DNA of 64,000 bases from Nemertoderma westbladi (taxonomy: Eukaryota; Animalia; Xenacoelomorpha). How positions within the stretch are numbered: the first letter of the stretch is position 1; the number at the start of each line of letters is the position of its first letter. The notes below the pieces were generated by a model, which searched no databases, was not told where the DNA came from, and saw only the letters and a list, made by a program, of their open reading frames with translations. Shown here one piece after another: positions 12,918 through 60,009 of this stretch. The stretch covers positions 15,619-79,618 of the forward strand of contig JAUCBJ010004241.1 of NCBI GenBank assembly GCA_032718475.1, written 5' to 3'. The position numbers were made by a program, and so were the translations under genes.

Positions 12918-14134
12918 TGTAAAAGCTTTTGCGGATATAATCAGTCCCCTTGCCCGCAAAGTACCGTTGTAGGTGTTTTAACGGACATAAAAGTCATTCT
13001 TCTATATGTGTGCTTTGGCGGACATGGCAAGGCACAAAACCCGCAATGCGTCAAATACTCTAGCACAGTGTAGCCTTGATGATTCAGATTACGACATCTA
13101 ACAGCTGGTTGCTGGCATGGAAACGGCCATTGGACACATGGTTCTTTGTTTAGCTTAACAGCCAATCAGGGCGATTTTTACTGTCGATGTGGAGATATTC
13201 TATAGATCGTGCTAGGAGTGTTCAGTCTTACTGTTTTTTCTTGATACTGTTTTGTTGTTTCTATCTAGGCCAAGAACACCGGCTCTGGAGTCAATTCGTT
13301 TCAGACTTTAGAAGAAACATTAGTAGGCTTAGATTATAGAACGTATAACTGTTATCGGCTCAATCAACACGGCCCAATTAATAGCGCAGTAGCGCAGCGG
13401 TACAATCTTATATTGTTATAATCTTAACCTACCGTCTTAATGCTTTTTACTGTTGTTATTATTTGTATCAGTTGGTTGAATATTATTATTTGGAGAACAT
13501 CTATAAAGAACCCAAATTTCCCAATTTTCTTGATACACTACAGGTTAGAGAGACAGGTTACATATAGCGATTGCGACTTATATTATCGTGGTTTGTAGTG
13601 AGTTTAATGCTATTTGATAGGCACTACATGAGTCAATTGCTGTTCTCTTTATATATGATAAAATTCATTGACGGTCGGCAGATTAGTGTGCAGTATTGTG
13701 TGGTACCGGTAGTGTGCATGATTGTGGCTGATAACTAAGCATTTCCTAAAGAATGCGCCTCATACGTGAATCATAAGCCTTACAGTCTTACAGTTGTGTT
13801 TAGTATAAGTCATATCTCTGTTTATCTAGATAGAGCGCCACGTCCTAAAGGAACTGTTAATATTTCCCGAAAGTGAATAATATTGGTCAGAAATTATTTA
13901 TTAACGATCAATCGAATAATACAGTAAGCTTACACTGCAATAACAATCTAAGCCCATCCGAATCCAGTCTCCCGGGTATATCCAGCGGGTGAATGGACGC
14001 GCACTAGGCTGGCTTCGGCTAATGTTGTGTTTATTGGTATTAAATATTTGTCATTTACTAAAGTCTATTTATAAACCAAAAGACATATAAATTTTGGCAG
14101 GTTAAACTGCTAAAGGTCTTCAAAAGCGCGTACA
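12918..14134 (+). repeat. 3' LTR of element 1 (1217 bp)
   Basis: Direct repeat of 1783-3002 followed by TSD ACGTT. Confidence 0.97.
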
Positions 14135-25716: not shown

Positions 25717-26883
25717 TCAACTGTTTGTCACTGGCCATTGGGGAGGGTCGGCGTCCCTACTCAGTAGCTTTGGGATGGTCGACTGAGCCACCCTAGATCC
25801 TCCTCTAAGGGCCACTGCTACAATCCTACGGAGCTTGGCGAGAACATCAATTATATCCTTCTTGCTAACACCATTGTTAGTAACAGCCCTAAATGAAAAC
25901 TCGTCTACCGCAAGCACTCGAACACAAGGCTGACCGAATTCCCCTTCCACAGAACGTAAACTCTCAACAACCCAATCCACGGTTATCTTTATACCTTTCT
26001 GCAGATGAATTATTAGAATATTTGTCGCTATCGATTCTGTTTTCACATAGATAAATCCAATCATTGTGTCATTGATACCTGCGGCTAGGAATCTAGCGTT
26101 GCTATGATCCTCATGGAGTCGTCTGTAACCTTTAGTAATAGCAACCAATCCAGGCGCCGCAATCACGCCCGCTTGGTTCATCCCTCCCCCAAGTAATTTA
26201 CGCATCCGTCGTCCGTATTCAATAAGCCCCGTAGAACCAACTAACAAACTACCAATAGGCGCTCCTAGACTTTTGCTAAGACTTACCATAACGGAATCGC
26301 AATGCTTTACAACTTCTTTAGGGTCTACACCAAGAGCTACAGCTGCGTTGAAGACCCTTGCGCCGTCCAAATGAACTGGAATGCCATAACTTTGTTTTAT
26401 CCCATTTATTTGATCCATATATTCCAGAGGAAGACACACACCACCGCAGTAGTTTTGTGTATTTTCTAGACAGATTAAGGCGGTTTCAGTGAGTTGATTC
26501 AGTGCCGCATGAGGTTTCTTTATATTACACATTATATCGGATATTCTCAAGGTTCCATCCGGTTGGTTTGCAAGGGGGACAAGTTGGACTCCCGCGATTT
26601 GTGCAGCTGTGCTTGACTCGTGTACGTTTATATGAGATATGCTTCCTACTATCGCCTCAGCGGATGGCCCTTTACAGTAATTCATTATGGCAATCAGATT
26701 TCCCATTCTACCCGCTGGTAGTAACAATGCCGCCTGTTTACCCAGAAGGTCGGCAACCTCTTGCTCCAGACGATTTACGGTATCATCTTCGCTGTAAGAA
26801 TCGTCGCCAACCACGGCGTTAAACATCGCTATTCGCATTTCTTGGCAAGGCTGTGTAACTGTGTCGCTTCGAAGATCGATCAT
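25717..26883 (-). CDS. Low-specificity L-threonine aldolase (THA1/GLY1/LtaE family, PLP-dependent), intronless
   Basis: IDLRSDTVTQP, CLENT, VHLDGAR, SLSKSLGAPIGS (PLP lysine), RKLLGGGM motifs; 388 aa. Confidence 0.93.
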   Translation of the reverse strand: MIDLRSDTVTQPCQEMRIAMFNAVVGDDSYSEDDTVNRLEQEVADLLGKQAALLLPAGRMGNLIAIMNYCKGPSAEAIVGSISHINVHESSTAAQIAGVQLVPLANQPDGTLRISDIMCNIKKPHAALNQLTETALICLENTQNYCGGVCLPLEYMDQINGIKQSYGIPVHLDGARVFNAAVALGVDPKEVVKHCDSVMVSLSKSLGAPIGSLLVGSTGLIEYGRRMRKLLGGGMNQAGVIAAPGLVAITKGYRRLHEDHSNARFLAAGINDTMIGFIYVKTESIATNILIIHLQKGIKITVDWVVESLRSVEGEFGQPCVRVLAVDEFSFRAVTNNGVSKKDIIDVLAKLRRIVAVALRGGSRVAQSTIPKLLSRDADPPQWPVTNS

Positions 26884-26957
26884 TGTCAGCTTATATAATT
26901 AGGATTTTAGTAAGCAAATATCTTACGAAAGTTCAAAATTTGTGCGGCAAGTGTCCC

Positions 26958-29218: not shown

Positions 29219-30130
29219 ATGTCGGTATTATATGAACCCGACGGGGAACATTATGTAATATGTCCGTATGATCCTGTACATCGTATACGTCAGAGTCGCT
29301 GGGCTCCTCATATCAGCAAATGTCGCAGAAACCACCCAAATATTAATTTGGAGGAGTGTCCGTTTAACTCACGACACCTCTTACCGCCAGCAACCTTGAA
29401 ACATCACATAAGTGAATGCAGGGACCGAGTGCAGATAGTAGGTATTCAAGCACGTAATCAATGCGCAGCTAGGCGTAATGGTGGTTGTGAGGCGGGCGTG
29501 ATAGCGGGCGACGCACGGGGTACTCCTGCGGCGGCTATCCGGCTCACGGACGAAGATTGGGAAGCGGAATGTAGCGCTTCTCAGTCCTCGCATAGCGTCG
29601 GGTACTCTAGCGGGTTCCACCAACCCCAGTCTAGCGGGTTCCAACCCCAGTCAAGCGGGTTTCAACCCCAGTCTAGCGGGTTCCAACCCCAGTCTAACGG
29701 GTTCCAACCCCAGTCAAGCGGGTTACAACCCCAGTCTAGCGGGTTTCAACCCCAGTCTAACGGGTTCCAACCCCAGTCTAACGGGTTCCAACCCCAGTCA
29801 AGCGGGTTTCAACCCCAGTCTAGCGGGTTCCAACCCCAGTCTAGCGGGTTTCAACCCCAGTCTTCTGGGTTCCAACCCAAGTCTACCGGGTTCCAACCCC
29901 AGTCTACTGGGTCTGCACCGCAGTATTCCGCAATCGATTCTCGTCCATGCGGGTTGCACCCTCGCGGGGTTGGGTTGGCCTCTATCGGTGGCAGTAATGA
30001 CGGCGTTTCTTCGATTACATCGCTTACCAGTGTACCAAGTGCGCCTATCGGAATGGGCAGAGGAGTAGGACGGCCAGCCAACATGCCACCACCACCTGGA
30101 TTAGGCCGCGGTATAGGTTATATGATATAG
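29219..30130 (+). CDS. GTSF1: GTSF1/Asterix/Cue110-like protein (two CHHC U11-48K-type zinc fingers), intronless
   Basis: CPYDPVH...HISKC and CPFNSRH...HISEC tandem CHHC fingers; acidic DEDWE motif; C-terminal GRG motifs; orthology versus paralogy not resolved. Confidence 0.82.
   Translation: MSVLYEPDGEHYVICPYDPVHRIRQSRWAPHISKCRRNHPNINLEECPFNSRHLLPPATLKHHISECRDRVQIVGIQARNQCAARRNGGCEAGVIAGDARGTPAAAIRLTDEDWEAECSASQSSHSVGYSSGFHQPQSSGFQPQSSGFQPQSSGFQPQSNGFQPQSSGLQPQSSGFQPQSNGFQPQSNGFQPQSSGFQPQSSGFQPQSSGFQPQSSGFQPKSTGFQPQSTGSAPQYSAIDSRPCGLHPRGVGLASIGGSNDGVSSITSLTSVPSAPIGMGRGVGRPANMPPPPGLGRGIGYMI
29621..29914 (+). repeat. Coding 21-bp minisatellite (14 x QPQSSGF) inside the GTSF1-like gene
   Basis: CAACCCCAGTCTAGCGGGTTC units in frame. 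Confidence 0.95.
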
Positions 30131-31556: not shown

Positions 31557-32243
31557 TTAAAGATTTTTAAATGAATATTCCCGGCAAAAACATAAGTATA
31601 TAAAAGCGGTTGCGGCTAAAACAGAAATTACAAGAACAGTTACTTCAAATTGAAAAAAATACAAATATATGCAGGGCATAATTACCAAAATAACAACAGT
31701 AAATAATAATACCAATGGATGTTTTGCAATATTTGTTACATAATTGTATTTAAGTCGAATCTCCAAGCGCCCACTGCTTTCTGGGGTTGTTTCAATGCAG
31801 TAAATAATAGCGTAGTTTTTACGTATAAACTTGATTAATTCCTGTTTAATATCAACCTTTTCTTCACCTTTCCCGACCTTAATGATACGCGGAATACATT
31901 GTTTATAATCAGTTTCTTTGCAATACTTCATGGCTTCGTGCACCACTGATTTACATTCACCAATAACTAAGCCATTTAAATCTATGATCAAGCACATCTT
32001 GGGTATTATTGTCAAACAAGAAGCAAATAACTTCTGATTAACATCATACATGTTTATATCCTCAATCCAATAAATCAGATAGAAGAATAACATAGCCATC
32101 GGTGAGGTTGCGTTAATGCACTCCATATAGTAAAAATATCGTATTTCTTGCTGTTTACGGTAAAATTCAATCGCAGATTGTTTTTCGTCTGAGATTTCTT
32201 GAATATAATTCGTTTCTTCAGATTCTGCAACTATATTTGCCAT
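31557..32243 (-). CDS. DUF1771-Smr-like protein with two C-terminal transmembrane helices (paralog 1)
   Basis: IDLNGLVIGE, IIKVGKG, IKQELIKFI, GRLEIRL follow the Smr fold pattern (IDLHGL, ITGxG, IK..V..YL, G.L.V.L); helical N-terminus ending MYDVNQKLF resembles DUF1771; two hydrophobic segments at the end; ATG at 32243 aligns with paralog ATG. Confidence 0.65.
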   Translation of the reverse strand: MANIVAESEETNYIQEISDEKQSAIEFYRKQQEIRYFYYMECINATSPMAMLFFYLIYWIEDINMYDVNQKLFASCLTIIPKMCLIIDLNGLVIGECKSVVHEAMKYCKETDYKQCIPRIIKVGKGEEKVDIKQELIKFIRKNYAIIYCIETTPESSGRLEIRLKYNYVTNIAKHPLVLLFTVVILVIMPCIYLYFFQFEVTVLVISVLAATAFIYLCFCREYSFKNL

Positions 32244-32469
32244 TGTGAAAATTATACCTGTTTTTCTTTTTTCCTTTCGCTTTTTCAAATTAATAATTTT
32301 TTGTATATTTATCTTATGGACAATTTACAAATAATAGTATGGTTTATCAAAATAAATAAAAACTACAGAAACGAAATATCGGCCCATGTGAAGTGACTTT
32401 CTGCTGTTATATTTCACTTTGCAGTTAACCCCCATGGGAGGAGGGGGGGGGGGGGGGGGGAGTTTACCT

Positions 32470-39470: not shown

Positions 39471-39478
39471 TATTTAGC

Positions 39479-40698
39479 TGTAAAGGCTTTTGCGGAATTA
39501 GCTGGTTATTTTCCCCGCAAAGTACTCTGTAGGTGTTTTATCGGACATAAAAAGCCGTTTTCTTACTGTACAGGTGTTTTAGTGGACATAAAAAGCCATT
39601 TCTTCTGTATGTGTACTTTAGCGGACATAACTAGCAATTTTATGCCGCAATGCACCAAATACTCTTAGTACAGTGTATTGCAGATGACGACATCTATCAG
39701 CTGAGATGTCGACGTGTAGCTTTTGGCTTTCTTTGTTCAGGCTCACTCACTCGACCAATCAGAGCGATTTTCATTTTATTTGTACAGAAGCCTCCGGGAA
39801 ATCGCGCAATGCATTATGGTTTATGTTTACCTTTTTTCCTGATGCCAGAACATCGGCTGTGGAATTATTCTGTGTTTCAGACTTTAGCCAAACATTAGAA
39901 CGGCTTTGATCATAGAAACGTATAACTGTTATCAACACAATACATACTCAATTCATATCAACTCAAAACAAACTGGCATACAGCCCATATCATACTATAC
40001 ATACCTTTCACCGCATTATTTTACTGCTATTTACTGTCGGTTATTAATTGTATCAGTTGATGGAATATTGTTATATTTGGAGAATATCGATAAATAATCA
40101 TAAAACCCCAATCTTCTTGATATACTGAAGGTGAGAGACCGGTTACATATAGCAATTGCGACTTACATTATAGTGGTTTTGGAGTGAATTTAATGCTATT
40201 TCATAGGCCCTACATGTGTCGGTTGCTGTTCTCTTTATGTGTGACTAAAATTAGTGAAGGTCGGCAGATCAGTGTGCAGCAGTGTGCGGTAGTGTGCATG
40301 AGTGTGATAGATAACAAAGCATCTCCTAAAGAATGCGCTTTATATGTGAATCAATAGCCATCCCGTTGTGTTTAGTGTAAGTCATAACTCTGTTTACATA
40401 CTTAGAGCGCCACGTCCTAAAGGAACTGTTAATATTTCCCGAAAGTGAATAATATTTGTCAGAGATTATATATTAACGATCAATCGAATAATACAGTAGG
40501 CCTACACCGCAATAAAGTCAGAGCTTCCGAATCCAGTCTCCCGGGTAAATCCAGCGGGTGAATGGTCGCGCATAGGCTGGCTTCGGCTAATGTAGTTTTA
40601 TGTGTATCAAATACTCGTCATAGGCTAAAGTCGATTTATAACCTAGAAGACACCTAAATTTGGCAGGTTAAACTGCTAAAGGTCTAAAAGCACGATCA
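39479..40698 (+). repeat. 5' LTR of element 2 (1220 bp)
   Basis: TGTAAAGGCTTTTGCGG ... AAAAGCACGATCA; differs from the 3' LTR by about 8 substitutions and one 13-bp indel, counted by eye. Confidence 0.97.
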
Positions 40699-40711
40699 AT
40701 AACAGTTATAC
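40699..40711 (+). promoter_or_regulatory. Non-canonical PBS of element 2 (ATAACAGTTATAC), candidate self-priming PBS; second copy at 40766-40776
   Basis: Exact reverse complement of GTATAACTGTTAT at 39920-39932 within the LTR; no TGG. Confidence 0.68.
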
Positions 40712-42664
40712 TTCTGATTGCAGTGTAGGCAATAAATACAGTTTAATATTGTTCTGATAAGAACAATAACAGTTATTGCTTCTTTATTGCAACGTAGGCA
40801 ATAAAGACTAAAGTACCGGTCGACCGGTAACCAGTAGGCCTGACTGCCTAACCACCCGAACCGGTACTTACAGTAGTACAGGTACTAGTATTATTTCGAT
40901 TGTGATATTGTATACCGGTAGGCTGTTTAAGAGATTAGGGACTGTACACCCCTTGTTTCTTTTGGAGCTTATTTATTTCTGTCAGTTTTATTTATTTGTA
41001 AGTTAATATTGAGCAGAAGACGTGTAATCCTGCTCAGATTGTACAGGTAATTTGTAGGCTGGACTGTTGTCTGACTGTTGTTAAGTCTGAAGAGATTGCA
41101 GTGTGTGTAGAGTGTATGTCCGATAAAGTACTAGTTAGGAACGTGGTGGGCATCCAGTGCTGTAAGGTAAATCCCCCCGAAAGAATAAGTCGTACTACTC
41201 GGTTAGAACGCATACTAACTAACCATTTCGGAGTCTGCATATACTGTAGTTTATTTAGGCTTGATAGTAGTCTGCCAGCGTTTGGTCTGTATTTTGTTTG
41301 TGTAGTCTGTAAGGGTAGCGTAATATTTATTATTCAGAGTTTATGCGATTATTCGCAACATTCATACCCCCAAGTTTATTCCTACAGTAATTGTGCTTGT
41401 TATATATACCATTATAGTTAAATTAACCCCGGTACTACATCAGGGCTGTTCGGCGTAGGTAAAGACTGGTGATTTTATGCTCTGGTCACTCCGGCAGATA
41501 CCGTGGTTCTTTTAGCTGTACAAGTATTTTTAACTGCTGGTTATTTGTTGTATAAGTACTTGTACCTAATTTAGGGTTTAGTGTACAGTGCTTTCCGAAG
41601 GTAATTAGTGTGTAGGCAGTATATTTGTGTTGTAAAGTGGTTAATAGGCACGTTGGCTCTGGTAGGCCGCGGTAATTAACTTCTAGGTAGGAACACTCCG
41701 TGTACATAACGTAGTACTTATAGCGCTACGGCTATAAGTCGTCAGACGGTGGTATTTTTCCTATCTGGACAACGTAGTATATTTACTACTGCTTTATTAT
41801 TTTCAAATACCGTATTATCCTGTCCATTTGTAATAACCAGATATTCTAACCCTTTGTTAGGCTGGTTTGTAGACTTCTTGTAAAATTACCCTAAAATTTG
41901 TACGTGTAATTTTTTGTGTTTATTTAGAGATTGTAATCTCACCCCGTAATTGTATGTAATTTGTAGTATTAAGTAACTTAGGCAAGTAGAATTATTGGTT
42001 TTAGTGTCCAACAAGTAGCACTTCACTGAGAGCGTACAGCTTCTGTGTAGTGACTCCTTCCCAGAAATAATAACATTTATTTCAAATATTGACAAAAACC
42101 CATTAAAACGGGTATATATATTATAAATCAACTCCAACCGATTTATAAAATAGTAGGCCTGTCTTACAACAATTAGGTCTTAATGTCAGTTGGACTACTG
42201 CTTAAATAACGGTAATAAAGTAAAGTAAAGTAACCAAGTAACCCTAAAATTCAGAAATTCAATTATTCTAAAATAATTGATATACCGGTATTCACGATAG
42301 GCTTATTATATATTTCTATATATTTGTGCTGAAATTATATACCGGTATTCTATAATTAATTCTAGTCTATAATTATATTTATATACACTATAAGTGTAAG
42401 CTGTATACCGGTATTCACGATAGGCTTATTATATATTCTATATATTTGCGCTGAAATTATATACCGGTATTCTGTGACAAACCTAGTCTGTAATAATACT
42501 TATATATACTATAAGTGCATATCGGTATTCTAATATGTTGTAAATATATCACTTACACTGAGTAACGATATCGGTAATTAATTACTAGGCTAACAGTTGA
42601 TACTGAATTACTAGACTTGCTTTAACTGTAATATAGCAGTAGGCATTCAACTGTACAAACAAAC

Positions 42665-45600
42665 ATGTCTGACACAAAGCAAAACCTGTCAGACAGTCTC
42701 CTAGATACAACCATCTGTGACCCAGACAGGAGTGTAGAACGTGTGAGACCAAAGTTCAACTCACCTCCTACTGTAAGAAAGATCATCCCTCCAGTAGTAG
42801 TATCAGACCCTAGGCTAGTCCAACACCGTAGGTCTATCATAGGCACTCGGGCTCAAGTCAAGCGGGACCAAGAAGCAGCTGTTAAACAGCAGCAACACTC
42901 GAGCCGAGAACTTATTCCTCAGCGGCCCGACAGCTCCAGTAGTTTGGATACTGTAGAGCTGACACCCGAGCGCGGAGCAAAGATGGCAGATGCGGTTTAT
43001 TCGGATCCCCTTCTCATCCTTCCTGCAGCCGTACTCACTAGGGTATTGATTGCGGTGGAGGAACACCAAATTGATTGGGCGAGAAGTAAGCGATCGACCA
43101 AGGATAGTTATGCGAGATACACAAGAGAGGAACTGAAGTCTATTGTCGAGTCGCAATGGAACTTCCCCGGACCCGGACTCCCGTTTGACTTATCGGAAGC
43201 TGCCTGGGAAGACATACATAGGATGGGAGTGACAAAAGACACTAGTGATCCAGCTGTGTGGAAGAGGTCGGCAGCAGGATATGTACAGGGATTCTTCAGC
43301 TCTTTGGAGCGATTAGAGGAACAACTGTTTCAACAAACCCAAGGACCTCAAGAGCAGGGAGAGCTGCTTTATCAAGTTCGAGAAAGAATTCTAAGAATCA
43401 GACTAATCCTATCGGCCTTTGAGGAGGCTTCGAAAAGAAGACAAGACACGTCGTTGCAAGTTGCTGTAAAGACTTGGTTTCAGCGGGTGAGTCTCAAAGT
43501 TCAAGGAACGGCCCAGTGGAAATCTCAGCTGGCTGAGCGCTCAACCCATGGAGAATCAACAGATGCTACCTTTTCCCAAGTGGAAAGTGAAGCGACAGCA
43601 GAGAAACCGCATAAGAGGGATGCTATTGACATTTATCTGTCAGACTATCAACGATTTCTAGGTGATGAAGAGTTGAGGAGAAGGCTGGCTGGACTTCGTC
43701 CTAATAGTGAAGGAGCCAAGTTTGTGTTGGACGCAATAGATGCGGAAATGTTAGCTGCGAACCAAGCTAAATTCGATGAACGCCTCCGCATCGCTAGGGT
43801 CCAAGAAGAACAAGTAAAGAAAAAACGTATAGAAGACAGAAAGACAGCAGCAGCGGCAGTGGCAGCGGCAGAAGCGGAAAGAAAAGCGGCAGAGGCGGAA
43901 AGAAAGATGGCAGTGGCAGAAGCAGAACGGAGAGCGTCTGAAGAGACCACCCAACTAGAGTTGGAAAATATTCAAGAGAATCAAGACTGCATAAATAAAC
44001 AGTTAACAGCTAGTCAAATGCAGATGATGAGTCGATCTACTCCCAAAAGACAGGGATTTACATCATCTGATGAAGGCGATACCACCGATCCTGAAGGCGG
44101 AGGAAATAGATCTCGTTCCAACAGACGTAGAAGAATGCCTCACCGTCAGAAATTGCCTGATTTGCCCCCAGCCGTGAGAAGGCAACTAGCTAGCACAGAC
44201 TTAGGTAGTACAGAACCCACAGACCAAATTATTAGATTAGAAAGACTCCCTACTATAGTAGATGAGCCTGAAACAATTAGGCCTGTTCTCGAAGCCACCC
44301 CTTCGGTAACAGAGACACCTGTACTCCTAGAACCTACCTCTAAATTCCCTTTGCACAGCACTAAACTACCTGTGCCCAGCAGAACAACCCCTGAGACAGT
44401 TCCTGTCCTGGACTCCGAGCGAAACATCAATGATTTGTTGCCCGTTGTCCCTCGTCCGCCCGCTACTATGATGGCGGCTCCCGCTTCGGCGGTAGAGTGG
44501 GTGGATGAGGGACGACGGGAGATGGGTCTCCTGCTCGGGCAGCTGAGGGAACACTGTAAGTGCTCCTCTCAGCAGGTCCGGGAGATGGAAGGAACTGTTC
44601 AGCAGTTCAAGGGCACAGTAAGGGAAAGTAGGTTAGACTTGCAAGAAGTGCAGCAGAGTATCGCGTTAGAACGCGATAAATTGGTAAATACACAAAAGGG
44701 TATACCACCAACCCCGGTAACAATGTGTCAACCTGTTAGGTCTGAAGTATTTCATGCACAAGGTATGGAGCCTACACGCATCTATACTGCTAGTGAAGTA
44801 GAAACTCCTATAGTAAACCCTATTAAGGGTAATTATAAACCTGTTGACAATGATATTCCATATAGACCTGATCATAATCCGAGAAATTTATATACCGATA
44901 GCTCGATATTAAATAACACGATGGCCCAAGAAAGTTTTACGCGTCAAATGGCTAGAACCGAAGCCCGTCAAGCAGTAAAGGTGGGAGAGATCGTCAAGTT
45001 CAATGGAGATGAGATGAAATGGTTACCTTTTAATGAATATTACAAAGATAACATACAGAACTCTGTGCTATCTAACGGAGAGAAACTTAGATTCCTCATC
45101 GAGTGCTTGGAAGGATCTCCCAAGTTAATGGCGTTAAAGTTTATTGGACATCCAGATGGATTAAGACAAGTTTGGGATACACTAAACATCAGGTATGGTA
45201 ATAGGAATAACATAGCTAGGTATTTGTATGCAAAATTGGTAGCGCCCCGAAAGTTCATTAGCAGCGGGATTATAGAGTTTTCCGATGAGATTCAGGAGAT
45301 TTGTAGACAATTAGATTGGCTAGGTAAGTCTCATGAATATCAGAGTTCTATGGTTATTGGAGCCGTGGCCTCTACTTTACCAAAGGGTGGAGTAGGTACA
45401 CGCTGGGATAAGAAAGTGTTATATATGATGGAACAACAACGACGAGACCCTACCATGGCTGATCTCATGTCATTCTTAGATGGAGAAGTAAAATTACAGC
45501 TCCTAAAGCAGTCCAGAGAGAAGACACCGGAAAATAAGGTAAGTGAGAAACCCGTTTCAAGGAGAAAGGTAACACCAGTGTGTTATACCGACGACGCGAA

Positions 45601-48600
45601 AGCCAGGCTTCTCAAGAAGAGGACAGCGGGAAAGACACTGAAAGATCTTACTACATCAACAAAGCGCCTAAAGACGTAAGTAAATTCAAGTCTCGAACCA
45701 ATGACAGGAGAGAACAGGTAAGAAAAACTCCTCCTACGTCTCCTAAGAGAATTCATGTAAGAAAGCCCGAAGAAAGAACGAGTATGCACAACATTACTCA
45801 AAGTAAGGTAAGTAACATCAAACCGAAATGTGCACTGTGTGACGGGCCCCACCGTTTGAGTGTGTGTGATGAATTCCTAAAGAAATCATTAAAAGATAGA
45901 CGTGAAGTCATGTGGGATAAGCGGTTGTGTTATAATTGCCTCAGACAAGGACACCAATGGCGAACCTGTTACTCCGACGCAAGGTGTGCAAAGTGCGGCG
46001 CAAAACATCATATCTTGTTGCACACTGAATTCGAACGAAACAGCCCGAGTCAGATAAGTGAGTCCGAACTACATGTCTAATTCAGTGATGTGAACGACAC
46101 TGACCAAAGTTCTGAGATGGAAGGATTCTATACGGACGAATTCTCCGATGAAAACGAATCCTGTTACCTAATAAATACCGCAGTGTGAAGGATGAACACA
46201 ATGAAAAGGACACCGACTGTGAGCCCCCCCTAACTACTCCTGACCGACAACCATCTTGGAAAGCACCAACTTCCAACGTAGGAATCCGAGAATTTCCCGT
46301 AGTGCAGTTGAGAGTCCACGGTCCTGACAAAAGTTATATAGTGAACGCCCTCCTTGACTCCGGCAGCACAGGAACATTCATCGACAAAGAACTAGCCGAA
46401 GACATCTTTGCTGGACAACCCAAGTTCCGAACTAAGTTAAACATGTCAGGAATTATGCAGGTTTGGAAATCTACAGTAATTGCAGATTACTATGTATTTG
46501 CGTTGTCCACCCCCCAGGATGAACTAGGAGAACACAGTATAAGGTCAGTAAAAATGGTGGCGATAAAGAACTTCGCTACCAGCCAAGTGGAACCTTATAA
46601 CTGGGATGAGGACGATTTCACCCAGCAGCTTAAGATACCTAGATTCAACACAGACTACCCTGGAGTGCAAATACTCATCGGCCAAAATGCGCATGAGGCG
46701 CTTGAGACATTGGAGAAACGGCCTGCTCAACCGCAACCACTACAAGCCTATGCGGGAAGAACTAGAGTAGGTTGGTACTTTACTGGCCCTTCCCGTAGAA
46801 CTGTCATGGAAAGGTTACCCAAAGAATGGGTATACCAGGTAAGTGAATGGGAAGAGGAGTTCAGTGAGGTAGACGACATAACTGAGGGAACACCATACTC
46901 CTCAGATAATGACGACATCCACCAACTCTTCGACGAGGAGAAGACCATCGACCTCCTTACAGAAAACAAAACTTGGCAAAACCAAGTGAACCTATGTCAC
47001 CTCATTCATCCAGCAGAACAAGCGTACAACGACGAACTGAATGAAGTGATAGATCGCTACAACGTGAAGACTCGCGATGAACACGCCGTACGATTCTTTA
47101 CTCAAGAGGCTGTAGAGCCCAATTCCTACGATAAGGCCCTATCGGTAGAAGAAGAAAGAGCCAAGCAGATCCAGGAGACAACTACACGGTTTCTTAAAGA
47201 TCAAGGTAGATATGAAATCGGTCTACCATTTCGAAAGCGAGAACCTAAATTTATAAACAACCGACCCTTGGCGGAGAAAAGAATTGCGCAACTATATCGA
47301 CGCCTTACGGCAAATGCTTCAGCTAAGGAAATGTACAAGACTCAGTTGAAGAAATTTATTGACAAGGGATATGCGGAGCGAGTACCGGAAGAAACACCCA
47401 TAACTGAGAGAACGTACTATCTAACACATCATTACGTTCCCAAACCCGGTAAACCCAATGAAGTCCGGGTAGTATTTGACGGCTCCGCCCTCTACATGGG
47501 CCAATCCCTTAATTCCGAGTTGTTACCAGGACCCAACTTACTCCAATCCTTGTTGGGAATACTCTTAAGATTACGACAATATTCAATCGCTTTCGCCTCT
47601 GATATAGAAGGCATGTTCTTACAAGTCAAGGCGCTGGATAGGGATCGAGACAGCCTACGATTTCTGTGGTGGCCTGAAGGAGACCTCAACCAGAAACCGG
47701 TGGAGTATTGGATGACCATCCAGGCTTTTGGGATCATCTCAAGCCCTTCAAACGCCTGCTCAGTGGTGCGCACCACTGCTGATGACAACCGGGACGCCTT
47801 CTCTAAAGAGGTTATCGACAACATCAAACGGGATATATACATGGACGACAATTTAAAGTCTCTCCCATCGGTGGAAGAAGCCATTGATGTTGCCAAAGGA
47901 ACGGTAGAGTGCTTGAAAAGAGGTGGATTTCGATTAACTAAATTCACCAGCAACTCCCGTGAGTTTCTGGAATCGATCCCGGTAGAAGACTGAGGAGTTA
48001 AAGATCTAGACCTAATCAAGGACGATCTTCCAGAAACCAAGACACTTGTTTTGAAATGGGACACAGAGAGAAATATCCTGTTTTTCCAGCTAAAACAGCG
48101 AGATAATCCAGTTCGGACTAAACGGATTTGTCTAAGTATCCTGAGCACTTATTTCGATCCATTGGGATTTATTAGCCCAGTTATATTGATTGCTCGGAGT
48201 TTAATACAACAAATGTGGCTTGAAAACCACTCATGGGACGATCCACTTAAGGGAGAACTACTAAAGAAGTGGATGAAATGGGAAGATTCTCTACCATCCA
48301 TCGAGAAATTTATAATTTCCCGTTCCTATTTTGGTCATGTTCTCCCCACGTATTCCTATCAACTCCATGTGTTTGGAGACGCCAGCGATATGGGAATAGG
48401 TATAGTAGCCTACCTGAGAGTTGAAACTCCGGATTGAATCAAGGTCGCCTTGGTTACCTCTAAGGCCTTGATAAACAACAAGTTGAAAGTTCCTCGAGCG
48501 GAGTTAAAAGCTGCTCTATATGCTACAGCCATCGGCCGGAATGTAACGGAACAGATAGACTATCCACTGGAGAAAACTGTCTATTGGACCGATGCTTTGC

Positions 48601-50699
48601 TCGTGTTGGAGTATATCACCAATGAAGTCTGTCAGTTCAGCGTCTTCGTTACCAACAGAGTTGCCATTATACTTAGTCGTACGAAGATAGATCAATGGAG
48701 ACATTGCCTTGGGATGATTAATCCAGCCGACATCGCCTCCAGGGGAGCAACTCCGCAAGAACTGATAGATACTCCATACTGGTTAAGTGGACCCGACTTT
48801 CTAAGCAAAGAAGAGGATGAATGGCCTCCTCATCTTACCACGGCTGAGATTAGACAAGCCAAGGGAGCGGAGAAAGTCAAACCTAAAACCCGGGCGAGTA
48901 AATCGAAGTTATTTAAACCTGTGATAGATCTGTCTGTACTACACACTTCCGGAGACGACGCTTTGGATCCACAATCCCCCACCACAAATAAGTCTGTTGT
49001 GGAAATCAGAGAGAGAGATTGGAAATCTGGAACGCCAGACGTCACGCAAGGACTCTCACCCCTCCTGCAGAGAGCGATACATCACTATAGTTCCTGGAAT
49101 CGGCTCTGTAAGGCCGTTACATATTTAAAGCGATGTTTTCATCATCACTACTCCAGGACGAAGACCACTAGTGATACCGCTCCACTGACATCTGCACAGG
49201 TCCATGTTGTTAAAGATCTTCCCAAATACAAGATATCCGACAGGTTTCTGAAGGAGAAGATCAGTTACCAGGAGCATGAAGAAACCAATAAGCAGATGCT
49301 GAGACTCCGGCAATGCTATGAGGATTCCGATAAGTATTTCCTGTTGTTGAGAAATCCACAGATGCGCTTAAGGGATCGTTTCTCTAGCACAATGATAGAT
49401 GGGTTAATACGTGTTGGAGGAAGACTAACTAATGCTCCATTATCCTTTGACACTAAGTTTCCCATACTCATTAGAAATCTTGAAATACAAATCAAGATGA
49501 TTGTAGATGTTCACAGTAAACTTTATCATGCTGGTAGAGAACGAGTTCTTAGCGAAATTCGAACTCGCTATTATTTTTATAAACCCCGTAGAGCTCTGAA
49601 CCAAGTTCTTAGGAACTGCATACCCTGTAGGAAAGCATTCAGTAGGCCTTTAACACAGCGAGAGGCAGAATTACCTCGGGAAAGAGTAAGCTTCTATGAA
49701 CCACCCTTTACTAATACCGGTGTAGATTTATTTGGCCCTATTGAAGTATATCGTGCTAGGACTATAGTCAAGAGATGGTGTGTCATCTTTGTTTGTATGA
49801 CTTGTAGAGCTATCCATCTCGATATGGTGAACGATTTATCTACCAACAGCTTCCTATTGAATTTACGCCGACAGATCGCTCGCTTTGGAACTAGTAACAC
49901 GATGAGATCTGATAAGGGAACGAACTTCATTGGTGCCAACAATGAAATCAAGGCTTACGTCAAAGATTGGAACCAAAGACAGGTGGACGATCAGCTAAGG
50001 GTAACAGCGTCTAGCTGGACCTTCAACGCCGCCGACGCCCCTTGGTGGGGAGGAAGTTGGGAGAGATTAATCAGGAGCGTGAAGACCGCATTTCACTTTA
50101 TAGTGCCGTGCCGCGCGTATCTCACCGACGAACTTTTGCGGACGTTAATGGAGGAAATCGCCGCCTATCTCAACGAGAGACCGCTTATGCCAGTCTCATC
50201 GAGTCCCGATTCCCAGGAAGCGCTAACACCCGCGCACTTCCTACTGAAGAAACCTGTAGCCATGCTCCCACGATCGGAAATCACAGACGGAGACGAATAC
50301 TGCCGGCAAACTTGGCAACTTATGCAGTTGTTATCCCGTCGTTTCACTGACCATTTCGAAAAACATTTTCTGCCCACGCTACAACTTCGAACTAAGTGGT
50401 TTGCGCAGCAAGAAAACGTCAGCGCTGGAGACATGGTCCTTATTGTGGATTCAGATCTTCTACGTAAGCGGTGGCAGACAGGTCGTATCATCGAGACTCA
50501 TATCTCGGATGATGGTTTGGTGCGATCGGTAGAACTCGTCGTCATGCGACGTAACTTTAAGAAACCGGGAATTGTCTTCGAGACGCAGCAACTCAATCGC
50601 CCAGTTGGTCGTTTATGTTTACTGGAAAGAGACAGAGAACTCTCCGGAAACTATGGAAGGCAAGATACTCTTCCCACGACCACCTCCCTAATCCAATAA
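42665..50699 (+). pseudogene. Gag-Pol polyprotein of element 2, disrupted by frameshifts (~45596, ~46186) and stops (46078, 47991, 48435)
   Basis: Triple gag knuckle, protease LLDSGS, RT VRVVFDGS / DIEGMFLQV / YMDD, RNase H HVFGDAS / PRAEL / WTDA / NPADIASRG, integrase H-H-C-C with GVDLFGP, SDKGTNF, GGSWERL, and DUF5641-like tail. Confidence 0.95.
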
Positions 50700-52183
50700 A
50701 CATCTAGGGACTCCCCAACGTAACAGCGTCTGGAGTGGGTGTGTGACTATATTATTTTATATTTGTTCTTATTATTTTATATTTATGTATGTATTATTAT
50801 GTAATTTTATTATAATCGTTTTCTTTAATTTTATTTAGTAGAATGTTATTTTAGCGATTATTTAGTAGATTAGTGCCATATATATTCGCGTTTATTACTT
50901 AATTACTTATATATTATATATTTAGTGCGACGGCGAGAAATAATTATTTTTCTCTTTCCTTACTGTCCGTATTACATTATAAAAACGTGACTACAGTAAG
51001 ATGAAATATCCGTACTTATTAAAGTACAATAAAGCTCCTACTATATTCAAGTATTATTGGTAAGTAGAGTATTAAGAATGCAAAATTCAGATCCTCGTGT
51101 CTCGGCTAAACGAAGCTCTGGGTAGACCTTGGAAACGACTTGCCTCTTCTCACTGACATTGCTTCTTGCGATATTGCTCTCATACCGTATATTAAATAAT
51201 ACATATAGTAGCGTGATGTCCCTTTAACAGTAGCGTATAACGCAAAATAAATCTGTTAAACCCTTTGACCATCTGTAATTCTAGTCGATTAAGATATTGC
51301 GGCACCCACCGATATACTTGAAAGACAAAATTCTAGAATCAGTGGTTAACGTCCCCAATGCTCTGGAATAAAATTGTGTCTATTTAACATTAAATAATAA
51401 AATTTACGGGAATAAATTCTAATTCATCTCTTTTAATGAATTTGATAAATTGTCATTTTATACAATTTGTAACATTCCCAAAATTCCATTAATTAATAGA
51501 TCATGGGAGCGGAGATTCACCCTATTAAGTGTATTAGTGTGCGAGAATCTCCAATATCTCCGATAAAATTCATAAAATCATGTATAAAGGGGATATTGAC
51601 AATTAAAGAATTACTATTAAATAGCATCCCAGATCTGTATGCATGAGAATTACCCTAATTCTACTGCTAGCTTTCCATAATGTCACCATAGCAACAACCA
51701 CGCTAGAATTAGAAGTGAGTTAAAAGAACAATAGAAAGCTTGCCCCATTGAATAGCATAGGGAATAAATAGCACACTGCTAGTATCCAAGGATGCATAAT
51801 AATAACGTGGCATTCTGGAAGGCACTGACTAACGGACAAATGGCCCGAATGTGTACAATTTGTGACAGTTGTGTGGAATTTGTGCGTTTATAGGTGAATG
51901 TTACTACTAAAGTGTGTTTACAGTAGCGAGTCGCAATTGTGAAAGTAGCCCTAACTCTGCCGTAAGAACCTGAAGTAAATCTAAGCCTTTGGGACGGACA
52001 GTGGAGTGACTTGTGCCGGTTATCGTTGTCGTTGTGTAGCTACTACGTTGGCAAAAAACACAGCGATGACGGTACATTGGCGCTGAGGATCTTGCACTGT
52101 CCGGGGGCCGAGAGGGGTAGGCAGCAACGCCCGCTAGCCTAATTATAAACTTATTATAATATTAATAAACTCATATAGCAGAT

Positions 52184-55100
52184 ATGACTGAGTTGATAGA
52201 AGATGATCTTGGTATCAGGGAGCGATATACTCTACCTTTACAAGCGTTTGTTGATAGCTTGATACGCGGCGACGCTAGTCCAACTACTACGGAGGACGAT
52301 GGTCGTTATATCGAACCGCCAATGTCCCAGGAGCAACTTACGCGTGAATTGGACTATAGAAAATTCACCGCTCGCTATACGCATCATAATGGTACGTATA
52401 TGGACTTCTTAACTACTGGCCATCCTATCGATCTACACGATACGGACGATGTAGACACTGAAAGGGAAATGGTTTTATTTAAATATCATACCCAGCGGAG
52501 TCGGAACGATAAACCAAGAATAGAACATGAGAATTCTATTCGGAACCGACTCGAAAGAGAAGACGTTGAAGAGCTGGATAAACGCAGCGACTTCAACAAT
52601 TATCTGGAATTCCTGAGAGAAACATATCTCAATATTGCCAGTCAACAAAATCTAGAAACTCGATATCCTCAAGGTATACATAATGACCCTATGATAGAAC
52701 TCAAACGGCTCTATTTCACTATGATGTATCTTACCGCTGATCGACCGCTACCTGTCGTTACAAGATAGCTTCGAACAGATGGAGGAATATTGTAAAACTG
52801 GAGAACGATCACCCGCGTTTCCCCTGCAGGACGTGCATCTTTGGTATTACTGCGACGAATGCCCTAGACCCAATCAGCAAACGGAAAGACATAAACATCC
52901 GCGGAGACGTTGCGCTAAACACAGTTTTACACAATATACTTATGGGAGTTTCGAGCGAAACCTGTTCGACGTATCACCTACGCTCGCTCGACTCAAACGA
53001 TCCTTAAATAAACCAATGATCAGAGTTCCGGAATACTTGGTCAGACCTCCTCATTCCTCAGTGAGACCTCAAACGCTTGATCCTAATAGTATAACGGATC
53101 CCCCTGAACTGTACTCACTATTTAAAGATCTTGTGTTACCCGAACAATTAATCGGTGGCACTCCGGTAGTGGGCTCGCTAGATATTCGCCCATCCTATCT
53201 AGCCGGATTGGGACGCGGTCATCTAATATCGCCGTTTAACCCGTACAACCGTCCAGGTTTAACCCCGATACAACCCATTACCGAAGTCGAAGAGAGCGTT
53301 GTACGAAACACGTTAGACGCTATTCGGCAGAAGATCGGAAAAGGAACTTACGATTGTTTAGAGAAACGCAAATTGCAGCAACAAGTCCAAGCGGTGAAAG
53401 AATTAGCTTTACCCCAGTTCGATAGAGAAATCCAGAACCTCGAGGAAGACATCGAACGTGGACGAACCTATTCTCTACAAGAGTTCATAGACGAGCATTT
53501 ACAACAACAAGCGGAGGAAAATCAGCTCAAGGAGAAACACATAGAAATGGATGAGAGAGAAGAAGCAGCTTTAGCCCAGCCAGAAGCTCAAATCCTTATG
53601 ACGGATCTCTATTCTAAAACCATCATCCATCCTTCGATGGTTCCCCATTTCGGAGACAAACTCTTCGCCACGGCACAGCCTCAACCGGTTGATATCAACC
53701 TAAGATCTCGAGATCTTATCGCTGATGCTCCCATGTTGCAACGTCCGCCAATCGAGGCTGCTCGTGTCGATGGTATACTCGTTGAACCTCCGGACAATAG
53801 AGCGGATCTTGTCCGTCGTATGGTACACGATGTTAACATACGCGCTAGACCTTTGCCGAACTCGTTTTATGGGATCAAAGATTACCCTTATTATGTCAAT
53901 CTAACGCAATATTACATGGTAAAACCGGAAGATCCTACACATAGTCTGAGGTTTCTACCACTAATAAATCCTCTCGATCTTGTCGAACTCGAACAACTGC
54001 AGAAACATCTGGATCAGTTAGTGAAAGTAAACTCATTCTGAAAACCCTATAATGTTTCCAGAATAGAGAAAGATACAATACCTTGATAATCTTGATGGAT
54101 TTATCAAAACTCGATTAGTCCACTGGAATCTCGACGTGTTATTCGAGGAGGAAAGAATACAACGATATGGAGATGTAGAAACATATACTACATAGTATTT
54201 GAAGTATAGAGATCTACCTAATGCTAGCGAATGCGCCACCTTGTGGCATCCAGTGGGAATGACTCTAGAAAACGCCACTAAAGAGTGGAATGAGACTCTT
54301 AACGTTATTGAGATGTATGGTGTTGTCACTTACGATAACGAAGGTAGCGTTCCGGTTGGAGAACTGGGAACTACGCGCATGATACATATACGAGGACTAG
54401 CTGGTTCTACCCACGTATTTACTCTAGCGTGTTCCGATGTGATTGATTATTCTTTTGAGACCCTTACCGAGATACAAAAGAAACTCCGACATGGACAATT
54501 CGAACTCGCGCAGCGTTACGTCACCGACACCGAGCGCAAACCGGCCATGGGTATCGATGGATCGATGTTACCCCAGCCCGTGCTCGAGATGTTGTTTAAC
54601 GAAAGAATCCTTAAAATCGGCTCAGCTGTTTATGGAGATCTCCAAAACGACTTTCGGAACATGGAGAACATTCCATACCCTTTCGTCGATACTCAGCTGA
54701 TTGCTCCCTGGGCAGAAGGCCGAGATTTCTTCTGCACTATGTATGCCAATACACCCAGCGGCATTACTAAAGTACAACGAACCTCCATCGGACATCTTGC
54801 CTTTCAAGAATACGGATGGAATTTCAAGGTTGGAAATCCTATCAACTACCAACAAGTATATGGAGATCATTATTCTCGATTATACTTTGACGGACCATTG
54901 ACCGCACCTGGCGCCGTGTATAGCTTTATGAGTGTTCCACTTCGTCCCTCCTTAGCTATATATACGATCTTTGAAAACGCCGCACTTGCCGGTTGGCTAG
55001 CCGATGTGTGCAGTCGTAATATACGCGCCCATCCCTTAATACTTGGAACCAAACTCGCCAAGCTAGATGAACACAATAAATTCATCCGCTTTGAATGTTT

Positions 55101-56436
55101 CAGGCGCTTTCTGACTCCGTTCCGTAACGTTGATAGTCAGTTCAAGGACCGCGCTCTGACCAAGCTCAGCCTAAGAGACTCAGCTGCTGAGAAGTTAGAC
55201 AGCGTGGGATTTGCCCTTTTCAAGGACGTTTGTATACAGAACTTACATTCATCTGTTATACAAAGACCTCGAATACCCACGGGTTATTCTATCGTGGACG
55301 TTCAGACAGTGGGTTCGCTTGAGGAGACAGCCGCACCTACCTCAGCTATGCAATTGGAAGACGAACCAATATGCTTAGAATCTGAGGAGATTCAGCCTAC
55401 AGCGCCCCGGAGCAGCGATAACGACTACGTCTTGGAATGGTATCAAGGTCCACAATGTCTCACTGCATACGATTATCGGCACGCCAACTATGTTTCTCGA
55501 AAACGTTGCCGATTATGCGCATCGAGAGATCATTTCACCCCTATGGACTCAGACGTACCCTGCTCCTATTTCCATGAACAACCGATGATGGAGATCTATT
55601 GTGCGTATTGCAGACTCAATAACTCGCACATTTTCGCAGTCTGCCCCCAATTTATGACTCAATGCCATCATTGTCAACTTAAAGGACATGCCAGTTTTGA
55701 TTGCCCTTTTAACCGCGATCTGGAAAACGTAGATGAGATGATTACCCTGCGCTACATCCGAGCTTGGGAAGCGAATGCGGATTTACATTGTGAGTCACGC
55801 CATCGCTATTACCCTGGACGCGCCTACGAAGGAGTTTACGCGTTCCATCCTTATCTATTCGCGTCTGTTGAACAAAAATCGCGCACACCGAGTTACGAAC
55901 TAATGAAGCGTATTGGTGAGTGTATTTCCACCAAATTTGTTCGTAAATATCTCAGGAACATCAATCCTAACGATATTAATTCATACAATTTGACCAATTT
56001 CATCCGTCAAGACCCGGAGTATGGCGATTTGTTCATCAACTCGCATCCTGAGTTACAGGAAGTACATCGACGGCCCTACGAATATCGAGCCCGAGAACGC
56101 AAACTGGAAAGAACCATTAAACCGAGGAAGTTTCTCACCACTCACGGTCCACCTACCGCTATCGTTCAGACGACTCGTCAGGGACCAGTAGGAGCTGCTG
56201 TCCTAAGACGCGCTCTAAAGGCCTTTAGACCTCGCTCCACTGAAGTTGATATCGATCAACCAGGTACCTCGACCGGTGGATACACCGACCGTAATCCTAA
56301 ACCTTCTGATGCAATTGTATTGCACCCTTCACCCAGGAGTTATAGCCCTCCTAGTAAAGTGGCTCGCCCCAAAGAGAAAAGGACTCTTTCTAGCCTCAAA
56401 AAACTGCATAAACGCCATCCGCGCAAGAAAGACTAA
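52184..56436 (+). pseudogene. ~1,400-aa accessory ORF: putative DEDD 3'-5' exonuclease (WRN/EXD-like) + zinc knuckles + basic tail; disrupted
   Basis: ORF pieces 52184-52768, 52779-54041, 54199-56436 join by frameshifts (~52760, ~54040) and TAG stops (54064, 54193); VVTYDNEG, LPQPVLEMLFNERILKIGSAVYGDL, FVDTQLIA, SIGHLAFQEYG, PL..SLAIYTIFEN; CHHCQLKGHASFDC knuckle. Confidence 0.75.
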
Positions 56437-56513
56437 CTGTTTAGAGTATTTTTATATTTTAGAAACTGTGATTTTTATATTTTATAGAATTAAATCCCAT
56501 TTTCTGGGAGCGG

Positions 56514-57720
56514 TGTAAAGGCTTTTGCGGAATTAGCTGGTTATTTTCCCCGCAAAGTACTCTGTAGGTGTTTTATCGGACATAAAAAGCCGTTTTCTTA
56601 CTGTACAGGTGTTTTAGTGGACATAAAAAGCCATTTCTTCTGTATGTGTACTTTAGCGGACATAACTAGCAATTTTATGCCGCAATGCACCAAATACTCT
56701 TAGTACAGTGTATTGCAGATGACGACATCTATCAGCTGAGATGTCGACGTGTAGCTTTTGGCTTTCTTTGTTCAGGCTCACTCACTCGACCAATCAGAGC
56801 AATTTTCATTTTATTTGTACAGAAGCCTCCGGGAAATCGCGCAATGCATTATGGTTTATGTTTACCTTTTTTCCTGATGCCAGAACTTATTCTGTGTTTC
56901 AGACTTTAGCCAAACATTAGAACGGCTTTGATCATAGAAACGTATAACTGTTATCAACACAATACATACTCAATTCATATCAACTCAAAACAAACTGGCA
57001 TACAGCCCATATCATACTATACATACCTTTCACCGCATTATTTTACTGCTATTTACTGTCGGTTATTAATTGTATCAGTTGATGGAATATTGTTATATTT
57101 GGAGAATATCGATAAATAATCATAAAACCCCAATCTTCTTGATATACTGAAGGTGTGAGACCGGTTACATATACCAATTGCGACTTACATTATAGTGGTT
57201 TTGGAGTGAATTTAATGCTATTTCATAGGCCCTACATGTGTCGGTTGCTGTTCTCTTTATGTGTGACTAAAATTAGTGAAGGTCGGCAGATCAGTGTGCA
57301 GCAGTGTTCGGTAGTGTGCATGAGTGTGATAGATAACAAAGCATCTCCTAAAGAATGCGCTTTATACGTGAATCAATAGCCATCCCGTTGTGTTTAGTGT
57401 AAGTCATAACTCTGTTTACATACTTAGAGCGCCACGTCCTAAAGGAACTGTTAATATTTCCCGAAAGTGAATAATATTTGTCAGAGATTATATATTAACG
57501 ATCAATCGAATAATACAGTAGGCCTACACCGCAATAAGGTCAGAGCTTCCGAATCCAGTCTCCCGGGTAAATCCAGCGGGTGAATGGTCGCGCATAGGCT
57601 GGCTTCGGCTAATGTAGTTTTATGTGTATCAAATACTCGTCATAGGCTAAAGTCGATTTATAACCTAGAAGACACCTAAATTTGGCAGGTTAAACTGCTA
57701 AAGGTCTAAAAGCGCGAACA
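56514..57720 (+). repeat. 3' LTR of element 2 (1207 bp)
   Basis: Preceded by GGGAGCGG PPT; ends AAAAGCGCGAACA; followed by TSD TTAGC. Confidence 0.97.
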
Positions 57721-57780
57721 TTAGCCTTTATTGTTTAGTCTTTATTCTAGAATAAAGACTTATTAAAAAAAAAGGACTAT

Positions 57781-58910: not shown

Positions 58911-59864
58911 CTATTCAACCCTTTTCTTTACAGCCCCAGGCTCCAGCATATACATGGTCCCTATTTCAGCTGGGTCGGCGGAAGAGGATATTTGTTCCGA
59001 TATTAGTTCAGATATTTGTTCATCTTGGCGGTTCCATTTCTGAGGCTCGAACTCTCGACCTTCAGGATGAAAGACAAACGATCTAACAACTTGGATAACC
59101 TGAACCTTCCCCCTTGTTGAGGGGGTTGCATTTTGATAAGGATCTTTCGGTTGGAAGACAGATAGATTAGCCTTCTGAACAACCTTAACCTTTCTCTCGG
59201 TGGTGGAGAGGGTTGAATTTTGATGAAGGATTGTACCAACCAAGATAAAGACAGAAACTGCAAGTGCAACACACAAACACACTTCCAGGTAAAAATAAAA
59301 TAAATATGTGCTGAACATAAATAAACAAATGACAACTGTAAAGAATTCCAATGGATGGTTTTTAACATAAGAAACATAACTGAATTTAACTCGAATATTC
59401 AACCGCCTACAACTATCGGCGTTTTCGATGCAGGAAATAATGGAATTGTTATTACGTATAAACTTTATCAATTCTTGTTTAATATTAACTCCATCTTTGC
59501 CGGCGCCGAGTATAACATTGCAATCTTGGTAATTTCTTTCTCTCCAATATTTGATAGCTTCTAGGACCACTGATTTACATTCTCCAATACATAAGCCATT
59601 TAAATCTATGATTGAATGTGTCTGGGGTATTGTGCGACAAGCATCAAATAGCTGTCGATTTGCGTCATCCATACATTTATTCTCCTTGCTATATAGACGG
59701 TATAATTTTACCTTGGCTATCGGTGAGAAGGTGTTGGTATACTCCATATAGTAAGCATGTCGCTTGTCATTATGTTCACGGTAAAATTCAATCGCTGATT
59801 TTTTTTCGCGCGATATTTGATTAATATAATCTGGTTGTTCTGGTTCGTCAAATATAAATACCAT
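58911..59864 (-). CDS. DUF1771-Smr-like protein with transmembrane helices and C-terminal extension (paralog 2)
   Basis: Clear paralog of 31557-32243 (SAIEFYR, IIDLNGL.IGECKSVV.EA.KY, IKQELIKFIR, HPL); MDDANRQLF DUF1771-like; ATG at 59864. Confidence 0.65.
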   Translation of the reverse strand: MVFIFDEPEQPDYINQISREKKSAIEFYREHNDKRHAYYMEYTNTFSPIAKVKLYRLYSKENKCMDDANRQLFDACRTIPQTHSIIDLNGLCIGECKSVVLEAIKYWRERNYQDCNVILGAGKDGVNIKQELIKFIRNNNSIISCIENADSCRRLNIRVKFSYVSYVKNHPLEFFTVVICLFMFSTYLFYFYLEVCLCVALAVSVFILVGTILHQNSTLSTTERKVKVVQKANLSVFQPKDPYQNATPSTRGKVQVIQVVRSFVFHPEGREFEPQKWNRQDEQISELISEQISSSADPAEIGTMYMLEPGAVKKRVE

Positions 59865-60009
59865 CTTGAAAATTATTGTTCCAGTTTTCGAATTCAATTG
59901 TCAATTTATATTATATATAAATTTAATAACTTTGAATGAAAGTCCTATTAATTAACTTAATATACTTAATATATTAACTTTGAAAGTCCTCAGGAAGTCT
60001 CTGATCGGA

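Follow-up and report, generated by a model that had tools for sequence, protein, structure and literature searches.

The window analysed in this study is a 64,000-nt stretch of the Nemertoderma westbladi genome (assembly GCA_032718475.1, contig JAUCBJ010004241.1, positions 15,619 to 79,618 of the forward strand). Positions 39479-57720 of this window are occupied by an 18,242-base long terminal repeat (LTR) retrotransposon which carries, in addition to gag and pol, a third open reading frame (ORF3) that likely encodes a remote exonuclease domain of the DnaQ/DEDDy type followed by zinc knuckles. The element, whose features all lie on the forward strand, is flanked by a 5-bp target-site duplication (39474-39478, with an identical 5-mer at 57721-57725); its 5' LTR (39479-40698; TG...CA) is paired with a 3' LTR (56514-57720), the two differing by 8 mismatches over 1,207 aligned bases and by one 13-base indel. 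The gag gene (42668-46080; DUF1759 and Bel/Pao-type zinc knuckles) is interrupted by one frameshift and one stop, and pol (46152-50699) is split by two stops into three pieces covering protease, reverse transcriptase, a Peptidase_A17/RNase H region and integrase (H2C2 and DUF5641); a polypurine tract (56506-56513) lies between ORF3 and the 3' LTR. Pfam searches with the element's proteins returned DUF1759 (E = 2.8e-11), protease, reverse transcriptase (RVT_1, weak at E = 0.21), Peptidase_A17 (2.9e-27), integrase H2C2 and DUF5641 (6.2e-19) in the expected order. By its LTRs, duplication, polypurine tract and domain order, this is a Bel/Pao-type LTR retrotransposon, and it is multicopy. Because gag-pol has four or more breaks, the copy at 39479-57720 is dead.

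The International Committee on Taxonomy of Viruses profile of the Belpaoviridae gives a size of 4.2-10 kb and a metazoan range (PMC8742986), so that at 18.2 kb the element is unusually large. It shares with the family the LTRs, the 5-bp duplication, the order gag-protease-reverse transcriptase-RNase H-integrase, the Pao-type Pfam markers and the short polypurine tract, but differs in that its third gene is nuclease-like instead of env-like, and apparently also in its primer site. Typically this site consists of 18 bases complementary to tRNA-Arg or tRNA-Gly (PMC8742986), whereas here no tRNA-type site is evident and the primer-binding position (40699-40711) is self-complementary, being a 13-base perfect complement of LTR positions 39920-39932. 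A second copy of the family in the window, with LTRs ~75% alike to those of the first, retains an 11-base complement (3003-3013 vs LTR positions 2210-2220). The LTR-complementary primer position in both copies suggests that this Bel/Pao element may be self-primed in a Tf1-like manner; no Bel/Pao case of self-priming stood out among the records found by our literature search, and the predicted folding of the LTR and primer region was unremarkable (z = -0.3).

ORF3 is a sense gene at 52184-56436, separated from the end of integrase at 50699 by a 1.5-kb AT-rich gap. A first-pass annotation of this DNA had described it as one reading frame of about 1,400 amino acids between integrase and the polypurine tract. 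A gene of that size (~1,400 codons) is indeed present, but it is not a single open frame: two frameshifts (near 52760 and near 54085) and two stops (at 54039 and 54193) interrupt it. The first piece (52184-52768) has a start codon and an N-terminal region without known family, and ends at the first frameshift; the second (52725-54041) comprises a cysteine/histidine (C/H) cluster near 52850, a proline-rich part and a charged stretch (53325-53565), and is ended by the first stop; a short piece (54067-54195) follows the second frameshift and runs to the second stop. The remaining frame, 54196-56436, contains the exonuclease-like domain (54268-55020), three C/H clusters (55507-55704), a conserved post-knuckle motif (55740-55860) and a basic C-terminal tail with the stop codon (56344-56436). 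All motifs quoted in the annotation were located in this frame, namely VVTYDNEG (D at 54334), KIGSAVYGD (D at 54637), FVDTQ (54682), SIGHLAFQEYG (54784), YTIFE (54961) and the C/H clusters at 55507, 55600 and 55663; two of these clusters are zinc knuckles of the CCHC type, but the first is atypical, without a fourth ligand at knuckle spacing. The basic tail, with 12 lysines or arginines among the final 30 residues, resembles a nuclear localisation signal and may act as one. The claim that the gene is not an env also holds, since the maximum 19-residue hydropathy over the three long pieces is 1.19, indicating no transmembrane segment and no typical signal peptide.

Directly before the ORF3 start lies a splice-acceptor-like 9-mer (52173-52181), whose second and only other occurrence in the whole window is before gag, at 42631; in the second copy, a TAGCAG core is found at both corresponding places. 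This arrangement suggests that gag and ORF3 could be reached by alternative splicing from a common donor in the 2-kb leader or the LTR, and from the acceptor-like 9-mer we infer a separate spliced message for ORF3.

That the DEDDy-type domain is more than a chance resemblance is borne out by a profile of 27 bacterial RNase D sequences, which scored 18.8 bits over ExoII of the window protein, compared to a maximum of 4.2 bits in 1,000 shuffles. In a profile-profile comparison, the window protein together with its relative P0001 (see below) matched the RNase D set with a probability of 91% (score 47.5 over 47 columns, vs a maximum of 18.0 in 40 column shuffles), and 2 of 18,950 NCBIfam models matched, both RNase D and both far under the cut-off (E = 0.0054 and 0.016). 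In the Atlas, 24 of 30 matches led to PF01612 clusters (score 0.93, with the family on 34% of members). Other comparisons were negative: Pfam detected no exonuclease in the window protein, the domain being visible to purpose-built profiles only; 36 short bacterial PF01612 proteins, which we label NrnC-like, failed to match the domain (-2.6 bits); the score with a mixed profile of 67 sequences was 4.3 bits, exceeded by 1 of 1,000 shuffles; and a phmmer search with the domain against solved structures returned chance matches only. A structure model built with a family-supplied alignment reached a pLDDT of 65.8, and its best DEDDy match had a Z score of 14.0 (root-mean-square deviation (rmsd) 3.6, 175 aligned residues); as the procedure is partly circular, the model is compatible with the fold rather than independent proof of it, and a single-sequence model reached a pLDDT of 32. 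We thus regard 54268-55020 as likely to be a remote DnaQ/DEDDy-type domain, a DEDDy-like variant rather than a canonical member of PF01612.

A scan of 1.84 billion representatives yielded two relatives of the window protein, P0001 and P0002, both unnamed singletons. P0001, at 29% identity to the window protein, has a nuclease region, three CCHC-type knuckles and the post-knuckle motif, and scores 11.9 bits against PF01612, for which the gathering score is 23.6. The post-knuckle motif is common to the window protein, P0001 and P0002, is duplicated together with the knuckles in P0002, and corresponds to no Pfam family. Word-based homologue searches gave no new relatives, scans of metagenome and viral contigs gave none, and plasmid tblastn gave chance matches only.

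Within the domain, a strand ends in the ExoI D-x-E (D 54334, E 54340); this motif and the ExoII K...D (D 54637) line up with columns that are invariant across 40 bacterial members and P0001. The ExoI register is input-dependent, and one alignment made from shortened inputs (A3), which misplaced ExoI, was not used. An insertion of ~30 residues lies past the ExoI strands. With Y 54961 and E 54973 taken as ExoIII, which is the favoured register, the best reading of the putative active site is D-E-D-E.

The annotation had assigned the domain to the WRN/EXD/Mut-7 group, and this label is not supported over RNase D, as RNase D profiles score equally well or better and the structure search ties the subfamilies, with RNase D, WRN, Exd1, Nibbler, RRP6 and Egalitarian all within ~1 Z. 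Among bacterial profiles, which are the only ones this comparison covers, three WRN-like proteins scored 30.9, and 10 of 12 three-sequence RNase D subsets scored higher. With a two-sequence profile, RNase D (E = 2.5) was the sole DEDD chain among six matches at E up to 10, and no WRN, EXD or Nibbler chain appeared within that limit. The K-x-G form of ExoII does resemble bacterial WRN-like proteins. With the PF01612 (DNA_pol_A_exo1) enzymes overall (RNase D/Rrp6 and WRN/EXD1/EXD2/Nibbler-Mut-7), the domain shares the ExoI D-x-E strand, the ExoII K..D helix, the DTQ motif and the PL..Y approach to ExoIII; it differs in lying under the Pfam cut-off, and Pfam found no HRDC, helicase or MUT7-C domain with it. 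The broader proposal, a non-env cargo gene of a retrotransposon combining a DnaQ/DEDDy-type domain with zinc knuckles, is supported.

ORF3 is under purifying selection in a multicopy family, even though it is broken in the window copy. Contigs of all four runs (three samples from three studies) contain the gene, with 30 of 30 bins covered, and in the 40 listed of ~1,200 rows of differences they depart from the window copy at no fewer than three of its four breaks. In run X1, the nuclease region differs from the window copy at a share of at least 30% in 23 places. Twenty of these differences are common among copies, and 19 of the 20 are silent, compared to the 33% expected for transitions (binomial P = 8e-9, an overstated value as the sites share ancestry); the remaining three are near-fixed, and hence private to the window copy, and all three change the residue. 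In 37 of the 40 rows listed for the gene (two non-coding ones and one at a stop having been left aside), silent changes make up 17 of 20 shared differences and none of the 17 near-fixed ones, the latter figure falling below the prediction of neutral decay and possibly stemming from row choice. The acidic residues are kept within the family, with no variant at a share of at least 30% in the five putative catalytic codons in run X1, and they are kept also in the distant relative P0001.

The second family copy (1783-14134, +) is internally deleted; it is without most of pol and the nuclease domain, but it keeps the ORF3 N-terminus (11247-11963) and the knuckles and tail (11950-12839). Compared with this copy, the ratio of nonsynonymous to synonymous substitution rates (dN/dS) is 0.086 in the N-terminus (190 codons), 0.044 in the knuckle region (170 codons) and 0.187 in the tail (105 codons), as against 0.117 for gag (200 codons). 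The copy has an intact-looking LTR pair and a 5-base duplication, sits in a 75-base satellite, and is possibly a non-autonomous derivative. Remnants of a far more diverged ORF3, also without the nuclease region, lie at 22118-23464 (+); being only 36-58% identical, they indicate that the association of ORF3 with the element is old. This remnant has a basic tail of its own, and a diverged piece of the family LTR (~74% identity) is found within 19519-20213.

Several known systems resemble the window ORF3. The Juno and Vesta LTR elements of bdelloid rotifers, and the Athena/Terminons, carry a DEDDy exonuclease ORF3 (Rodriguez, Kenefick and Arkhipova 2017, PMC5408684), and in the accessible part of that paper RNA 3'-end processing and silencing are raised as possible roles, with the question left open. 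As in Juno and Vesta, the gene described here is a non-env third gene after pol, of DEDDy type, with acidic residues kept but altered and no transmembrane segment. In contrast, the rotifer carriers are Gypsy-type and not Bel/Pao, their motif is given as DEED and not D-E-D-E, and no knuckle fusion is described for their ORF3 in the same text, while the window ORF3 has ~1,400 codons; furthermore, purifying selection was measured here, whereas the variation test found in the accessible text, on env and GDSL ORFs only, showed neutrality. The rotifer proteins were compared with ours by their published description.

For Trypanosoma brucei RNase D (TbRND, PDB 7c42/7c45), the knuckles are reported to raise RNA binding and cleavage (PMC7797062, accessible text). 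In both TbRND and the window protein, a cluster of CCHC knuckles comes after a DEDDy-type exonuclease domain; the model matches the TbRND structure at Z 11.0 (rmsd 4.2, 187 aligned), and the nearest Atlas cluster of P0001 has a TbRND-like make-up (score 0.86), which we treat as a lead only. TbRND is, however, a cellular guide-RNA trimmer of ~350 residues with four knuckles, as far as its available description goes, whereas in the window protein the linker is long, the knuckles number two or three, the N-terminal region is large and ExoIII has E; the similarity in domain order may be convergent. The DNA transposons Dada and KolobokD likewise carry a DEDD exonuclease, which in Dada lies within the transposase and has all four DEDD residues and in KolobokD is of the DEDDh type (PMC3706591, PMC9587614, accessible text). 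No report of a Bel/Pao exonuclease was found in the literature searched, the scope of which excluded Repbase, subscription journals and supplements, and the word 'exonuclease' is absent from the accessible text of PMC3118150.

Our preferred reading, to which we give a probability of roughly 0.38, is that ORF3 works as a metal-dependent 3'-5' RNA-trimming enzyme acting against host RNA silencing. The protein would be made from a separate spliced message and brought into the nucleus by its basic tail; its knuckles, which resemble those of nucleocapsid, Lin28 and Air2, would bind single-stranded RNA and, as in trypanosome RNase D, pass it on to the active site, with E substituting for the last catalytic D. 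The enzyme would attack small-RNA precursors or guide RNAs that are directed at the element, at their 3' ends. We read ORF3 as a knuckle-guided trimmer because the TbRND knuckles boost RNA binding and cleavage, and we prefer an accessory anti-silencing role since LTR elements replicate without such an enzyme. Such a protein would act in trans, so that deleted copies could manage without it.

A number of observations count against this proposal. To the N-terminal half of ORF3 (~670 residues), neither Pfam, NCBIfam nor PDB sequences assign a family or a function. At ExoIII, both the window protein and P0001 have Y-x3-E in place of the canonical Y-x3-D, and in the window protein there are two candidate registers 14 residues apart, of which the upstream one puts S at the catalytic position. 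In favour of the Y-x3-E register, P0001 has a single one, W-x2-PL-x6-Y-x3-E, which aligns with PL-x6-Y-x3-E of the window protein, and the profile alignment to PL/Y/D of RNase D ExoIII agrees with the Y-x3-E register, in a low-confidence part. The structure model is no test of ExoIII, as its range ends compared to WRN, in what we take to be the WRN residue numbering, suggest that it followed the supplied S register. In P0002, which has two knuckle modules, the nuclease region is degenerate, and probable pseudo-nucleases are thus part of the family; the nuclease region is absent from the other two copies in the window; and no observation ties the ORF3 enzyme to silencing over the element's own RNA.

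Much of this bears on the most serious alternative, which we consider somewhat improbable: that the domain is an RNA-binding module with little or no catalytic activity, in the manner of EXD1 or Egalitarian, and ORF3 an adaptor that shields or transports the element's RNA or sequesters silencing factors. Such a module would account for E instead of D at ExoIII, the ambiguous register, the 30-residue insertion, scores far under the family cut-offs, the degenerate P0002 and the large non-enzymatic regions under equal selection. Dead DEDDy derivatives, however, usually lose several acidic residues, while here all four positions are acidic in both of two proteins that are only 29% identical. In the structure search, nonetheless, Exd1 and Egalitarian score on a par with active enzymes, one of the Egalitarian entries being a complex with I-factor RNA, and EXD1 and Maelstrom are inactive derivatives according to the accessible text of PMC5408684.

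We find it quite unlikely that ORF3 is instead an active exoribonuclease for the element's own RNA, trimming the self-primer to its paired region or shaping the 3' end of the genomic RNA. The primer position complementary to its own LTR in two copies with LTRs ~75% alike fits such a role, as does the likeness of the knuckles to those of nucleocapsid; but the self-priming is itself a prediction, its complementarity does not tie the idea to ORF3, and fission-yeast Tf1 is not known to require more than RNase H for its self-priming. Nor is self-priming reported for the rotifer carriers in the accessible text of PMC5408684. Very unlikely, in our view, is a 3'-5' DNA exonuclease that would act on cDNA ends or proofread reverse transcription of this unusually long 18-kb element. 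DEDDy enzymes do include DNA exonucleases, the DnaQ-type exonucleases of Dada and KolobokD have been proposed to process DNA ends (PMC3706591, PMC9587614, accessible text), and the element is far beyond the 4.2-10 kb of its family (PMC8742986); against this, ORF3 is a separate gene, unfused to reverse transcriptase or integrase, both its CCHC knuckles and its resemblance to RNase D point towards RNA, and silent sites differ freely between copies. Finally, a host gene fragment that was transduced passively and plays no part for the element would suit a broken window copy and the loss of the domain from two others, but it is scarcely credible given the purifying selection among copies, whose silent-site bias largely refutes it, ORF3's own splice-acceptor-like site and the old association seen in the diverged remnant.

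Elsewhere in the window, an uninterrupted frame at 29219-30130 (+) encodes two U11-48K CHHC zinc fingers and a glutamine/serine repeat, a make-up that we take to be that of the Piwi-interacting RNA (piRNA) factor GTSF1/Asterix. Near a 75-base satellite array lie an uninterrupted threonine-aldolase-like gene (Beta_elim_lyase; 25717-26898, -) and, at about 16900-18083 (+), what is presumably the C-terminal part of a Greatwall/MASTL-like kinase; both are possible retrocopies or intron-poor genes. Two paralogous frames at 58911-59900 (-) and 31557-32324 (-) encode a weak Smr-like domain (E = 0.17 in the first frame) followed by hydrophobic segments.

Returning to the preferred reading of ORF3 as an RNA trimmer directed against silencing, its furthest extension would be a giant, probably self-priming Bel/Pao lineage whose knuckle-guided D-E-D-E trimmer, the first of a hitherto undescribed exonuclease-knuckle family with P0001 and P0002, destroys or mis-trims host piRNAs and is thus a transposon-encoded enzymatic suppressor of the piRNA pathway; in this full form we consider the idea unlikely. 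To our knowledge, a self-encoded counter-defence against small-RNA silencing is known from few animal transposons. The rotifer elements already provide a case of DEDDy cargo where env would lie (PMC5408684, accessible text); new here are the Bel/Pao carrier, the fusion to knuckles, the putative D-E-D-E site and the measured selection. P0001 provides an intact natural relative suited to direct assay. The Bel/Pao case, different in architecture and under clear purifying selection, means that the capture of such genes recurs across LTR superfamilies and that they are kept by selection.

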